From positions 191,769-255,768 of the forward strand of contig JBDRHA010000011.1 in NCBI GenBank assembly GCA_043817235.1: DNA of 64,000 nt. The letters are read 5' to 3'. This document shows positions 25,610-50,782 of the stretch, one piece after another. The stretch comes from Candidatus Shapirobacteria bacterium (lineage in GTDB: Bacteria > Patescibacteriota > Microgenomatia > UBA12405 > BS750m-G30). Below the pieces are notes generated by a model, which was not told the DNA's origin, made no database searches, and saw only the letters and a list, made by a program, of their open reading frames with translations. The translations under genes and the position numbers were made by a program. Numbering within the stretch: position 1 is the stretch's first letter; each line of letters starts with the position of its first letter.

Positions 25610-26725
25610 TTATTTATAACCAATTGGCTTCCCTGTTGGCGCCAATTCCAAACTCAATCTTCTTCGCGGTTTATCAACATGCTCAATAAAGCATTTAACT
25701 TTTTGGCCCACATCCAGCTTAGCATTAGGAGGAATTTTGCTAATATGGATTAGCCCCTCAATTCCTGGTTCCAAATTAACTAAAGCGCCAAAGTTAGTAT
25801 TTTCTACTATTGTTCCTGTTATTGCTGTTTCCGGCTGATATTTCTTTTCAATGTCAGCCCAGGGATCTTTCTCCAGTCTTTTGATAGAAAACTGCAGTTT
25901 TTCTCCTGCTTTATTTAGCAAGACAACCTTAGCCTTATCGCCTATTTTATAGAGTTGTCTTAAATTTGCTATTTTTTCCCAAGATACCTCAGAAATATGA
26001 ACTAGGCCCTCCAGCTCCAGGTCTTCTTTATCTACTGGCACAGCAATAAATAAGCCAAAAGGTTCTACCCGAACAATTTTAGCCTCAAATTTCTTTCCCT
26101 CTTTTAAATCGCCTACTAATTTCTTCTCTTTGGCAACTACTTTAGGCTCAGAAACCATTCTTTCTGAAAACACTAAGCGATTTTTGGCTTGATCTACTTC
26201 TAAAACCCTTGCTTCTATCTGCTGGCCAATCAGATTTTCTGGATTTCCCTCATATTTTTTCCCAATTTGCGACCCGGGAATAAAGCCAAAAAGGCCAAAA
26301 GGAGCAGAAACCACTACCCCGCCGCGATTAATTTCCTTACCCCTTACTCTAATATCCTTCTTTTCTTTTAAAGCATTTTCAAAAAACTCCCACGACTGCT
26401 CAAAAGCGGCCTTTCTTAAGGAAAGTAAAGTTTGGCCCCGCTCATTTTCCAAAACCCGGATTTGAGCTCTAACCTCATCTCCAACTTTTAACTGAGAAAC
26501 AAAATCCTTTACTAAGCCTAATTCCTTGCCGGTAATAATGCCCTCAGTTTTCCCGCCAATGTCTAGAAACAGGGTCTTGGGTTTCATTTCCACTACCGTG
26601 CCGGTCACAAATTCACCTCGGGAAAAAGTTTTTAGTGGCGTTGAGGATAAAGTCAACAGCTCCTCCATAGATTTAGGAGCTAACTTGCTTTTTTTATTTT
26701 TCTTTTGTTTTTTGATAACTGGCAT
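25610..26725 (-). CDS. rpsA: 30S ribosomal protein S1 (four S1 RNA-binding domains, short form)
   Basis: repeated S1-domain pattern (G..V.G.V......G.FV.L..G..GL.H.S); 371 aa. Confidence 0.75.
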   Translation of the reverse strand: MPVIKKQKKNKKSKLAPKSMEELLTLSSTPLKTFSRGEFVTGTVVEMKPKTLFLDIGGKTEGIITGKELGLVKDFVSQLKVGDEVRAQIRVLENERGQTLLSLRKAAFEQSWEFFENALKEKKDIRVRGKEINRGGVVVSAPFGLFGFIPGSQIGKKYEGNPENLIGQQIEARVLEVDQAKNRLVFSERMVSEPKVVAKEKKLVGDLKEGKKFEAKIVRVEPFGLFIAVPVDKEDLELEGLVHISEVSWEKIANLRQLYKIGDKAKVVLLNKAGEKLQFSIKRLEKDPWADIEKKYQPETAITGTIVENTNFGALVNLEPGIEGLIHISKIPPNAKLDVGQKVKCFIEHVDKPRRRLSLELAPTGKPIGYK

Positions 26726-27015
26726 AATTCATATTTCTCCTTTCAATATATTATTGACCAAAAAATCAGATTGCTGAGTGTTTAAAGAAAAATCTTGTTC
26801 GGTTTTTAGGTACAGCTTGGCTAAAACCATTGCTGGTCTTACACCGGCTGCCCATACCCAGTAGTCTCCTGGGAACCTAATAATGATTCCTTATCTTGGG
26901 GTGGGCTTCCCGCTTCAGATGCTTTCAGCGGTTATCCTTTGGAAACATAGCTACCCGGCAATGCTCTTGACAGAACAACCGGTACACCAGAGGTTTCCCC
27001 AACTAGGTCCTCTCG

Positions 27016-27772
27016 TCAACGATCCTCCCATTGCTGGGAGGGTTAGACTATATCTTCATCCCCCGAATACTCGGGGGAGCTTGCCTTATTATGGAGGCTT
27101 TAATTTGCTTTATTTATTAAAGATAAAACACATCCTCCATCTCGTCCCGCAGCTGCGGGACTCAGTCGTTAAAGGGGTATAAGACCTCTTTTGAGAAACT
27201 CCTTGCGAACGTATTCGCAATTATATTTCTTTTTGACAGTTGCATAATTTATCGAAGACAATCTATCTGAAAGTTGACAAACTTCCAGAAATTTCTTCGG
27301 CTTTGGTTTTTTTTGCATAATTGAAATTGCCCTAAGCATTATTTCAACCTGCTTTCTCTTAAAAATGATATAAGGGGTCAACTCTTTAAGGGTTGACCCA
27401 ACAGCTTTGTAGCCTTCAATTCTCAGCTCGGTAATATGATCTTTTCTTCTAGAAAGATAACCAATTCCCAGTTTCTTTCTGATCCAAATAAGACCTTTTT
27501 CGTGCCGGGTATCTTGATAAAAACATATTACGGTTTTTACCCGAAAGCCAAAGCTTACCACCTTACGTGGCTTTAACTGAAGCATAATACTTCCGTCGCC
27601 ATATAAAAAACCAGCAATATATGCTTTTTCTTTTCCTGTCATTGTCAAAAAGTCTTTAACCTTCCCTTGGTATTACCCTCTAAGTCACAAGGACCAACGA
27701 GTTTAATTTTAAAGGGCTTCACCAATTTTAGCAAGTGTGACCTTGGCAATTACTTACCAAGGCAGCATTTAT
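27016..27772 (-). mobile_element. self-splicing (group I-like) intron in 23S rRNA carrying a homing endonuclease ORF
   Basis: exon sequence ...CTACAGT | ACGAGAGGACC... is contiguous in E. coli (AGU/ACGAGAGGACC, approx position 2656/2657) but separated here by ~757 nt; boundaries approximate. Confidence 0.75.
27169..27648 (-). CDS. LAGLIDADG family homing endonuclease (intron-encoded)
   Basis: 159 aa; classic LAGLIDADG motif YIAGFLYGDGSI near the N-terminus; lies entirely within the 23S interruption. Confidence 0.85.
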   Translation of the reverse strand: MTMTGKEKAYIAGFLYGDGSIMLQLKPRKVVSFGFRVKTVICFYQDTRHEKGLIWIRKKLGIGYLSRRKDHITELRIEGYKAVGSTLKELTPYIIFKRKQVEIMLRAISIMQKKPKPKKFLEVCQLSDRLSSINYATVKKKYNCEYVRKEFLKRGLIPL

Positions 27773-30760
27773 CTACTGTAGTCAGCTCCCCTCAAGAATC
27801 AGCGGTTACTGCGGATAGAGACCGAGCTGTCTTACGACGCTCTGAACCCAACTAATGCGGCGCTTTAATGGGCGAACAGACCAACCCTTGGCCACTTCTT
27901 CATGGCCAGGATGCGCCAAGTCGACATCGAGGTGCCGAACCGGGCCGTCTATGTGGACTATCGGGCCCGACCAGCCTGTTATCCCCGGGGTAATTTTTAT
28001 CCGTTAAGCCCCATGTTTAACCATCCAAGCATGGGGGATCACTAAGACCTGCTTTCGCATCTCCTCGCCTTGACGGCGGGTGGTATCACCTTAAACTTTT
28101 CCAGTTCAAATGAGTGAAAAAATAAAAGGATTAACCAGCTCGACTTGTAAGTCTCGCAGTTAGGCTAGCTTTTGGCTTTGTCCTTACGGCTCGGTTTCCA
28201 TCCGAGCTAAGCTAACCTTTGTACGCTCGCGTTACCTTTTAGCAAGCGGCTGCCCCAGCCAAACTGACCACCAAACACTGTTCCCGTCCGAGTGTGCATC
28301 GGACTCAGGTAAGACGTAAACTTGATAAAGGGTGGTATTCCACTGGTGGTCCGACGTAAAGTCGGACCTCCCACCTATTCTCGACAGTTACCAAATTCTT
28401 GTCAATGTTAAGTTTCAGTAAAACTCCACGGGGTCTTTTTGTCCTGCAGTAACTAACCGGCATCTTCACCGGTATTTCAATTTCGCCGGATAAAGGGTCG
28501 AGACAGTTGCTCGGTCGTGAAGCCTTTCATACTGGTCTGAACTTACCAGACAATGGACTTCGCTACCTTTGGATCCTTAGAGTTAGGACCGTCGTTCACC
28601 GGGGCTTCGGTTTGAGGCAGTCCAAGTAAACTTGGATACCCCGCTCCTTGACCTTCCGGCACCGGACAGGCTTCAGCCCCTATACTTCCCCTTACGGGTT
28701 TGCAGAGACCTGTGTTTTTGCTAAACAGTCGCCGAGCAATCTTTCGCTGCGTCCCGCCCAAAGGCGGGAAAGGCATCTCCCTAAGTTACGCCTAGCTTTT
28801 TTGCCGAGTTCCTTGACCCTCCTTCTTCCGATCGTTTTAGTTTACTCAACTTGTCCACCTGTGTCGGTTTTCGGTACGAATATTATTTTTTCTCCCAACG
28901 AAGCTTTTCTTGGTATCTGAACCCAGCGGGATTTCCCAAAACAAGTTTGGGATTCCGGCAAGTCTCACTTAAAACGAAATGGCGGATTTGCCTACCACTT
29001 CTGGCTCAACTAACCGATGCGGCAATTTCACTCACCACACCCCACCTCTCCTGATACGTCCCTCCCTTGGTTATAACGAAAAAATAACAGGGCTGGAATA
29101 TTAACCAGCTGTCCATCCACTACTCCCGACGTAACGTCGGGACTTATGTTAGGATCGCCTAACCCTCAGACGACAAACGTTGCTGAGGAAACCTTGGACA
29201 TTCAACGGTCCAGTTTCTCACTGGACTTACGCTACTCATGCCGGCATTCTCGCTCCCGCCAACTCCACTCCGATTCACATCGGAACTTCACTGTAAGCGG
29301 GACGCTCCCCTACCAACCTCGCCTCCTGGGCAAGAAAATCCTAATTTCTAACCCTTTGTCATCCTGAGCATAGCCGAAGGATCTTTTACTCCCAAAGATT
29401 CCTCGACTTCGCTCGGAATGACAAGGCACAATATTATTTAGAATTTCCCTGTCCAAGAGACAAGATTCTCCGTTGTCGGTGGCCTGCTTTAGCCTCGGTA
29501 AATTTTCGGCGCAGCCTATCCATATCGACCAGTGAGCTGTTACGCTTTCTTTAAAGGGTGGCTGCCTCTAAGCCAACCTCCTGGCTGTCTAGGATCGACT
29601 ACCTCCTTCCCCACTTAGCAAGACACTTAGAGACCTTAAACGGGAGTCTGGGTTGTTTCCCTTTCGCCCAACCAGCTTAGCCCGGCTGGACTGACTGCCT
29701 GATTAATTTACCTGGTATTCGGAGTTTGGTTGAACACCGGAGATTGCTCCCCAGATGCTCATCCAGTCGCTCTACCCCCAAGCAAAACAATATCAGGCGC
29801 TATACCAATATATATTTCGGGGAGAACCAGCTATTTCCGAGTTCGATAAGCATATTACCTCTAACCACAGGTCATCCAAAGAGTTTGCAGCCTCAACTGG
29901 TGCGGGCCTCCGGTCGACTTTCATCGACCTTCACCCTGCCCATGGTTAGCTCACTCGGTTTCGGGTATTCCGCCAGCCGCTAAACGCCTTATTCAGACTC
30001 GGTTTCCCTACGCCTTCCCCCGCAACTGCGAGGTTAAACTTGCGACTAAGACGAAAACTCGCCGGCTCATTCTTCAATAGGCACGACATCAGTCCGACGT
30101 AACGTCGGACCTCTGTCTGTTTGTTAGCAAATAGTTTCAGGTTCTATTTCACTCCCCTCCCGGGGTTCTTTTCACCTTTCCCTCACGGTAATATACGCTA
30201 TCGGTCAGCAAGAGTATTTAGCCTTTCCGGATGGCCCCGGAAGATTCCCACGAAGTTTTGCGTGTTCCGTGGTACTCAGGTGCTCTGGCTCAAACTTAAT
30301 CAAATTTCACCTACAGGGCTTTCACCTTCTTTGGCAAGCCATTTCCAGGCTTTTTGGCTATTTTTTCAGCTCAAGACTATCAGAGTCCTACAACCCCCCG
30401 ACGTTACGTCGGGGTTTGGGCTACTCCCTTTTCGCTCACCGCTACTAAGGGAATTATGGTTATTTTCTTTTCCTCTGGGTACTAAGATGTTTCAGTTCCC
30501 CAGGTTATCCCCCCGCAAATGCGGGGTTTCCGAAATTAACTTCGGAAGGGTTGCCCCATTCGGAAACCGCCGGATCATAGGTTGCAGACACCTACCCGAC
30601 GAGTATCGCCGTCTGCCGCGTCCTTCTTCGACTCTTACCGCCAAGGCATCCACTATTTGCCTTACTACAAGATTTTTTCTTTAATATCAACAATCTGATT
30701 CTTTAGTCAATTACTTTCTAATAAGTTGTCAAGGTGCAGCCTGCCTCACCGGCAGGTGGG

Positions 30761-49026: not shown

Positions 49027-49053
49027 TAGATTATTTTATCATGGCAAAAAAAG

Positions 49054-49127
49054 TGGACGCGCCAGGACTCGAACCTGGGACCTCTTGCTCATAAGGCAAG
49101 CGCTCTCACCGACTGAGCTACGCGTCC
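49054..49127 (-). tRNA. tRNA with anticodon TAT (UAU; tRNA-Ile reading AUA), no encoded CCA
   Basis: manual fold: acceptor GGACGCG/CGCGTCC, D-arm GCTC..GAGC, anticodon stem CTTGC/GCAAG with loop CTTATGA, T-arm CCAGG TTCGAGT CCTGG; 74 nt. Confidence 0.7.

Positions 49128-49314: not shown

Positions 49315-50782
<1,468 letters not shown>

Follow-up and report, generated by a model that had tools for sequence, protein, structure and literature searches.

In the 64,000-nt stretch of contig JBDRHA010000011.1 analysed here (the window), we found a 23S rRNA gene on the minus strand (Rfam LSU_rRNA_bacteria RF02541, 2160 bits) that is interrupted in its sarcin-ricin loop by a putative mobile group I intron with its own LAGLIDADG homing endonuclease gene. 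It is the only 23S gene that the Rfam scan found in the window. The gene directly downstream encodes an S1-domain protein found with 100% identity in a Candidatus Shapirobacteria metagenome-assembled genome (MAG), which places the host in the Microgenomates group of the Candidate Phyla Radiation (CPR). A CPR host had also been suggested by an earlier reading of the DNA from its letters alone (the sequence-only reading). In the Rfam alignment, 768 nt stand in place of the 10 nt CGAGAGGACC of the model, straight after ...CUACAGUA (...UAGUA in the model), and the match then runs normally to the 3' end of the 23S gene. Read directly from the strand, the last base of the 5' exon is 27775 (...GACUACAGU; in longer form ...GAGCUGACUACAGU) and the first base of the 3' exon is 27016 (ACGAGAGGACC; in longer form ACGAGAGGACCUAGUUGGGG), which leaves an intron of 758 nt. 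An A flanks both junctions and makes their placement ambiguous by one base; this is resolved by the group I rule that a U precedes the 5' splice site and a G is the last base of the intron. In an E. coli rrl copy, AGTACGAGAGGACC begins at position 2654. The split therefore lies between U2656 and A2657, inside the sarcin-ricin loop, and this agrees with the textbook numbering, with G2655 as the bulged G and A2660 as the ricin site. The E. coli copy used (NZ_CP083701.1, L057) reads GCTGCTCCAGTACGAGAGG at positions 2640-2680, and the commonly cited E. coli loop, ...CUCCUAGUACGAGAGG, has one more U before AGUA; the numbering of A2654-A2660 is unaffected. The sequence-only reading had placed an intron of ~760 nt at E. 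coli approx 2656/2657. Both the site and the length hold, whereas the junction that it gave as about 27772 is 2-3 nt off, since the intron starts at 27774.

Without the intron, the rRNA is 3128 nt long and aligns end to end with E. coli 23S, with a canonical loop region. The sarcin-ricin loop is uninterrupted in four relatives that share the 23S-S1 gene order and have S1 proteins with 68-79% identity to that of the window. The split is no chance pattern: the joined exons reproduce the 23S of intron-less close relatives, and the L059 sequence GAGGGGAGCTGACTACAGTACGAGAGGACCTAGTTGGGGAAACC is identical to them over the about 45 nt compared. The sequence-only reading had proposed mapping the junctions against such relatives and had considered that the exons might not give a canonical 23S when joined; in the alignments with E. 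coli and with the relatives, they do.

A scan of one genome per species for ATAGTCTAA, followed after a gap of 12-42 nt by GACGAGAGGACC, showed that 49 species genomes, nearly all of them CPR, carry the same intron at this position. The contigs that encode homologues of the endonuclease all have the same element and junction, with a 5' exon ending ...CAGU, an intron reading A...UGCUG...GUUG and a 3' exon starting ACGAGAGGACC; some members of the family carry the guide GCUA. We took 44 distinct introns from the scan genomes and from the protein-derived loci, and the 5' junctions of L005, L006, L012, L016 and L056 were re-called or left out. These introns comprise ORF-less copies (ORF, open reading frame) of 268-385 nt, two copies with a truncated endonuclease ORF (438 and 459 nt), one with a broken ORF (759 nt) and copies whose ORF is intact (685-879 nt). 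From the ORF-less copies, the position of the ORF and the extent of the intron core can be read. Endonuclease remnants occur in L052, L020, L008 and L049 (introns of 438, 459, 759 and 385 nt). Some are N-terminal fragments of 45-50 aa that still read ...AYIAGFLDGDGS, one has 100 aa, and L049 keeps the DNA motif out of frame. These four introns provide snapshots of ORF loss inside loop L6.

The type of the intron, group I or group II, had been left open in the sequence-only reading; the Rfam scan and the structure shared by the family identify it as group I. The window intron has a local match to Intron_gpI (RF00028) at 27024-27133 (36.4 bits, E 2.3e-7, at a relaxed threshold), which spans P8, J8/7-P7' UGAAGAUAUAGUC and P9. 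The sole group II match is at chance level (E 7.1, 21.4 bits against a cut-off of 90) and lies inside the ORF. In P1, the exon bases CAGU and the first A of the intron pair with the guide UGCUG, and a U.G wobble stands at the 5' splice site. The intron ends ...CGUUG, with a terminal G, before ACGAGAGG, and the homologues found via the protein, independently of the DNA pattern, likewise end ...UUG before ACGAGAGG. A structure drawn for the window intron, and then laid over 13 homologues, has the P3-P8 core topology with the P3/P7 pseudoknot. Two further hairpins, P7.1 and P7.2, lie between P7 GACUG and the P3 3' strand GCAAG, a feature of IA-type (L2593/IA3-like) introns (Haugen et al., PMC1995217); the label IA-type is used here solely for this architecture. 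Two other pairings were considered. P3' or P7 in the 5' segment (UGUGAC/GACUUA) was rejected, as the ORF-less homologues give P3 as CUUGC/GCAAG and P7 as GACUG after the stop codon, and the alternative P5 pairing GGUCCU/AGGACC suits L001-like members, not the window intron.

The window structure was projected onto a MAFFT alignment of 13 family members (A1) for a covariation test. Standard pairs fill 85.3% of the cells in A1, compared with 40-46% when the partners are slid by 1-3 columns; both sides have changed in 41 pairs, and none of the 500 shuffles reached the observed values. P1, P3, P4, P5 and P6 have 98-100% pairing. In P7.1, P7.2, P8 and P9, the register of A1 is lost, so that the pairing there (59-80%) understates the structure; these hairpins were therefore checked by folding each sequence singly. 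These folds gave exactly three hairpins (P7.1, P7.2 and P8) in 42 of the 44 introns, and a GNRA loop L9, too, in 42 of the 44. The P1 guide base and exon position -4 covary in 40 of the 44 introns (U-A in 23, C-G in 17, with four exceptions). In the more divergent members, P3 reads UCGGC/GCCGA or CCGAC/GUCGG. P6a covaries in the family as well (for example, ACAAA/UUUGU, AAAGC/GCUUU and AUAGC/GCUAU), and CCCCGUAACGACU, in the region of the P6a and P6 3' strands, is retained in the ORF-less homologues.

The intact LAGLIDADG ORF that the sequence-only reading had noticed on the rRNA strand is borne out by Pfam and PDB matches. It had been given as 159 aa from a TTG (27648); an ATG at 27642 yields 157 aa and is the likely start, because the homologues, with 59-74% identity, are 157 aa long. 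The protein has the motif YIAGFLYGDGSI in a single stretch that matches Pfam LAGLIDADG_1 (28.1 bits against a cut-off of 23.1). Near-full-length PDB matches, with E-values of about 1e-17 to 1e-14, were obtained with I-CreI (8.8e-18, residues 9-147), I-MsoI (5.8e-15, residues 3-157) and also I-CvuI. D16, Q43 and K95 align with the catalytic residues D20, Q47 and K98 of I-CreI and are invariant among 17 family members; a histidine stands where I-CreI has R51. The gene is nested in L6a. The P6a and P6 3' strands come from its last five codons (GGU CUU AUA CCC CUU), and J6/7 contains its stop codon UAA (27171-27169). The C-terminal residues thus serve both the protein and the RNA structure. The endonucleases at other 23S sites are far less similar, as that of L003 at a neighbouring site is only 30% identical and a third one is barely related; the enzymes at the sarcin-ricin loop site (at least 47% identity) therefore form a lineage of their own. 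Tandem introns were also observed in related 23S genes, with three LAGLIDADG ORFs in L003 (1537-4474) and four in L005 (602-3906), within about 3 kb. One of the L003/L005 introns stops right before UCGGUCUCUAUCC, roughly 50 nt upstream of the sarcin-ricin loop intron. The only record of the identical endonuclease protein is a raw-read assembly of 926 nt (P0001, source lgn), and the adjoining S1 protein is recorded from an NCBI MAG; apparently, the annotation of the MAG does not call a gene inside the rRNA.

The endonuclease of L001 is 74% identical to that of the window and its S1 protein only 45%, a comparison in which the two proteins may evolve at different rates. The patchy presence of the intron, the greater similarity of introns than of their hosts, and the intact, truncated and lost ORFs are what a homing cycle would predict. 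Several contigs with a CPR-type intron (L011/L001 (OZ246397.1), L023, L038, L039, L045 and L051) are labelled as Gammaproteobacteria (including a 615-kb 'chromosome'), Anaerolineae, Acidobacteriota, Nevskiaceae, Aenigmatarchaeota and Omnitrophota, and the rRNA of L045 matches the bacterial large-subunit model. These non-CPR labels are probably due to mislabelling or mis-binning and do not name the true hosts. If any of them were genuine, the intron would exist outside CPR.

We are confident that the element is a mobile IA-type group I intron with its own homing endonuclease, inserted between U2656 and A2657 of the 23S rRNA gene. Established group I and LAGLIDADG biology suggests how it would act. 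The intron in the pre-rRNA would fold into the P1-P9 core, an external guanosine would attack after the U of the P1 U.G pair, and the freed exon would attack after the terminal G and thereby join AGU to ACGAGAGGACC. Such joining would restore the sarcin-ricin loop needed by elongation factors. At the DNA level, the 157-aa protein is predicted to act as an I-CreI-like homodimer that would cut intron-less 23S genes at the DNA encoding the sarcin-ricin loop, and repair from an intron-bearing copy would insert the intron. An analogy with I-ShaI (Tsurumaki et al., 2024, PMC11270868), a single-motif CPR enzyme from another 23S site, supports the homing step.

Several observations weigh against this interpretation. 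The 36.4 bits of the window intron are below the Rfam gathering score of 50, a shortfall that we attribute to the 483-nt L6 insert separating the two halves of the core; ORF-less members of the same-site family reach the gathering score (L055, 53.3 bits; L038, 58 bits). P7 does not vary, nor does the greater part of P1, P3 and P6, and the support for these helices comes from conservation and topology and not from covariation. We could draw no P10 pairing between the guide region and the 3' exon ACGAGA. The scan pattern itself required the terminal G and the P7' motif, so that the uniform ends of the family are partly circular. In the protein, residue 14 is a tyrosine (codon 27601-27603, minus strand) where all 16 aligned homologues have aspartate, a single-base change that turns FLDGDGS into FLYGDGS. 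This substitution could reduce endonuclease activity, and it could mark the beginning of endonuclease decay, be tolerated as a variant or stem from an error in the assembly. The sixth position of the LAGLIDADG motif varies across the wider superfamily, and we therefore do not take Y14 as inactivating, although it is the single flaw in the gene. A palindrome scan of the joined exons for a cleavage centre was uninformative: around the junction, no more than 4 of 9 positions are symmetric, so that the DNA is only weakly palindromic, less than a homodimer would predict.

The insert could instead be an intervening sequence (IVS) that RNase III cuts out without ligation, leaving the mature 23S fragmented at the sarcin-ricin loop. 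Unligated IVSs occur in bacterial 23S genes and probably also elsewhere in the 23S genes of CPR bacteria (Tsurumaki et al., 2024, PMC11270868); in the window's own 23S gene, some 130 additional nt near E. coli 1157-1182 are a candidate IVS of this kind. The insert at the sarcin-ricin loop has a complete group I core with covariation and no simple extended helix or long terminal stem. Its termini do not pair with each other, and it lies within the loop motif, not at the tip of a helix. A permanent break between U2656 and A2657 would fall in the bulged-G motif of the loop, and one alpha-sarcin cut in this loop inactivates ribosomes. Excision without ligation is thus a very improbable account of the insert. 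There is next to no chance that it is an unspliced expansion segment kept in the mature ribosome, the other possibility that the sequence-only reading had raised. CPR rRNAs do carry lineage-specific extra segments, and nothing more specific speaks for this view. The insert interrupts a universally conserved 12-nt loop sequence, where extra RNA within the bulged-G motif would inactivate the ribosome; it encodes a protein, has the architecture of a ribozyme and is absent from the four close relatives with otherwise identical flanks. A dead rRNA pseudogene or an assembly chimera is hardly conceivable either, and we found no point that supports it. The gene gives a full-length large-subunit match of 2160 bits with canonical exons, and the window holds no other 23S gene. 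An independent assembly of a sequencing run (P0001) contains the identical endonuclease, and the same architecture recurs in many independent assemblies.

An alternative closer to our interpretation is that the element has decayed in part. Either the intron no longer self-splices efficiently and needs a helper protein, possibly its own LAGLIDADG protein as a maturase, or the endonuclease is inactive owing to the change from aspartate to tyrosine and the element is only vertically inherited. D14Y is unique among the 17 aligned homologues, the truncated and lost ORFs show that endonuclease decay is common in the family, and bifunctional LAGLIDADG maturases are known from fungal mitochondria. However, the ORF runs to full length and, this change apart, is well conserved, also in the equivalents of the catalytic Asp, Gln and Lys, and the changed motif position is a variable one, as mentioned above. 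The complete ribozyme core and the persistence of ORF-less copies argue against dependence on a maturase. Overall, we consider such decay unlikely, and a mobile group I intron remains the preferred explanation.

The site of the intron has been catalogued. In their survey of 348 CPR 23S genes, Tsurumaki et al. (2024, PMC11270868) name position 2657 (23IS14) as one of the sites that frequently carry group I introns with LAGLIDADG_1 ORFs, and describe it as unreported in other bacteria. The comparison with known insertion sites that the sequence-only reading had recommended thus leads to 23IS14, with which the window intron shares the gene, the site (~2657), the group-I-like RNA, the single-domain LAGLIDADG_1 ORF and the CPR host. 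As far as the available text goes, that paper lists the site statistically, whereas the exact junction between U2656 and A2657, the secondary structure and the ORF placement come from the present analysis. The site and the intron class have accordingly been known since 2024; the present analysis contributes the exact junction, an IA-type structure whose L6a ORF overlaps P6, the ORF-less relatives and the intron-less alleles. A literature search for a LAGLIDADG intron in the sarcin-ricin loop, or for one named L2656, L2657 or mL2656, returned nothing relevant beyond Tsurumaki et al. (2024), and the name L2656 occurs in none of the papers searched.

Structurally, the intron resembles the L2593 introns (Haugen et al., PMC1995217), such as the Chlamydomonas chloroplast Cr.LSU intron with I-CreI and its cyanobacterial counterparts, which have a P7.1/P7.2 extension of roughly 65-70 nt, a short P2 and a short P5. 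Both encode a single-motif endonuclease of ~160 aa, and the closest solved relatives of the window enzyme are I-CreI, I-MsoI and I-CvuI. In contrast, the window site is 63 nt downstream, in helix 95 and not in the peptidyl-transferase region; its DNA target is unrelated and less symmetric; and the protein is roughly 30% identical to I-CreI-derived chains, a value read off the alignment and not computed. The I-ShaI and I-KazI introns of CPR 23S genes (23IS7; PMC11270868) are similar in their CPR hosts, group-I-like RNA and single-domain LAGLIDADG_1 enzymes. According to the same text, I-ShaI, a single-motif enzyme, cuts its own insertion site and dimerises. These introns differ in occupying another 23S site and in belonging to an I-CeuI-like lineage, and cleavage has been assayed for I-ShaI, whereas the window enzyme is known from its sequence. 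The type IA introns of phages Twort and T4 (td) share the P7.1-P7.2 domain between P7 and P3. They differ in their protein-coding host genes and their GIY-YIG or HNH endonucleases, and no sequence relationship was detectable here.

The finding brings little new biology, being one more cleanly resolved case of the endonuclease-bearing group I introns that are so numerous in CPR rRNA genes. For annotation, the true 23S sequence requires the removal of 27774-27017, and pipelines that do not call genes within rRNA miss the endonuclease gene. The junction, the secondary structure and the family alignment provide a ready substrate for splicing and cleavage assays. As the presumed target is the near-universal DNA of the sarcin-ricin loop, the enzyme could interest meganuclease engineers. 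A bolder and, in our judgement, very improbable idea is that the intron is not purely selfish. A 50S subunit with unspliced 23S rRNA cannot activate EF-Tu or EF-G, and group I splicing consumes a guanosine cofactor; splicing might thus be a checkpoint that ties ribosome activation to the guanosine-nucleotide supply in slow-growing, genome-reduced CPR cells. Separately, and as part of the same speculation, the endonuclease might have an unusually broad potential host range, because it would recognise the DNA for the most conserved stretch of rRNA.

Table 1. Coordinates of the interrupted 23S rRNA gene, its intron and other features of the window (window positions; A1, alignment of 13 family members).
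Feature	Position	Strand	Basis or remark
23S rRNA gene	26786..30671	-	Rfam RF02541
23S rRNA 5' exon (E. coli 1-2656), ending ...GACUACAGU	27775..30671	-	Rfam RF02541 (2160 bits), direct reading, E. coli numbering
Group I intron of 758 nt that splits the sarcin-ricin loop at U2656/A2657	27017..27774	-	Direct reading, Rfam, covariation, relatives
23S rRNA 3' exon (E. coli 2657-2904), starting ACGAGAGGACC	26786..27016	-	Rfam model positions about 2690-2925; spliced alignment with E. coli
P1: exon CAGU (27778-27775) and intron A1 (27774) with guide UGCUG (27767-27763)	27763..27778	-	100% paired in A1
P2 hairpin CCUUGGU/GCCAAGG	27741..27762	-	6 of 7 pairs changed on both sides; 96.7% paired
P3 5' strand CUUGC	27731..27735	-	Pairs with 27084-27080; 100% paired; one pair covaries UA/AU/GC
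P4-P5 domain: P4 UUGGU/ACCAA, short P5 CCCUUUAA/UUAGAGGG	27667..27725	-	P4 98.5%, P5 99% paired; compensatory changes
P6 5' strand (GGG..G in GGGAAG, 27666-27661) and P6a 5' strand (AAGAC, 27656-27652)	27652..27666	-	Alignment, family
LAGLIDADG homing endonuclease gene, 157 aa, in the P6a loop	27169..27642	-	ORF, Pfam, PDB matches, homologues
P6a 3' strand (GUCUU, 27185-27181) and P6 3' strand (CCCC, 27177-27174)	27174..27185	-	Family comparison
P7 5' strand GACUG	27163..27167	-	Pairs with UAGUC 27050-27046; invariant in the family
P7.1 (27161-27144) and P7.2 (27140-27091) hairpins, between P7 and the P3 3' strand	27091..27161	-	42 of 44 folds; compensatory changes
P3 3' strand GCAAG	27080..27084	-	Alignment A1
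P8 hairpin	27059..27078	-	Rfam Intron_gpI alignment, A1, folds
J8/7 and P7 3' strand UGAAGAUAUAGUC, conserved group I core element	27046..27058	-	Rfam Intron_gpI local match
P9 hairpin, GCAA (GNRA) tetraloop	27024..27041	-	Single-sequence folds
Terminal G (omega G) at the 3' splice site	27017	-	Direct reading
Extra 23S segments compared with E. coli	29319-29475, 28075-28149, 30362-30395	-	Spliced 23S alignment
S1-domain protein gene	25610..26725		100% identity to MAG protein
16S rRNA gene	49315..50780	+	
tRNA-Ile (UAU)	49053..49127	-	Anticodon loop CUUAUGA, direct reading

The spliced 23S has further extra segments compared with E. coli (101 and 31 nt near 1157-1182, 75 nt near 2357 and 34 nt near 291), and Rfam gave no group I match in any of them. 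The segment near 1157-1182 lies in a region known for RNase III-type IVSs. The window as a whole gave no 5S rRNA match. The 16S gene (1466 nt, without a large insertion) and the 23S gene are unlinked, lying ~18.6 kb apart on opposite strands. Just upstream of the 16S gene and divergent from it is a gene for tRNA-Ile with the anticodon UAU; most bacteria, as far as is known, instead read AUA by a tRNA with a lysidine-modified CAU anticodon.

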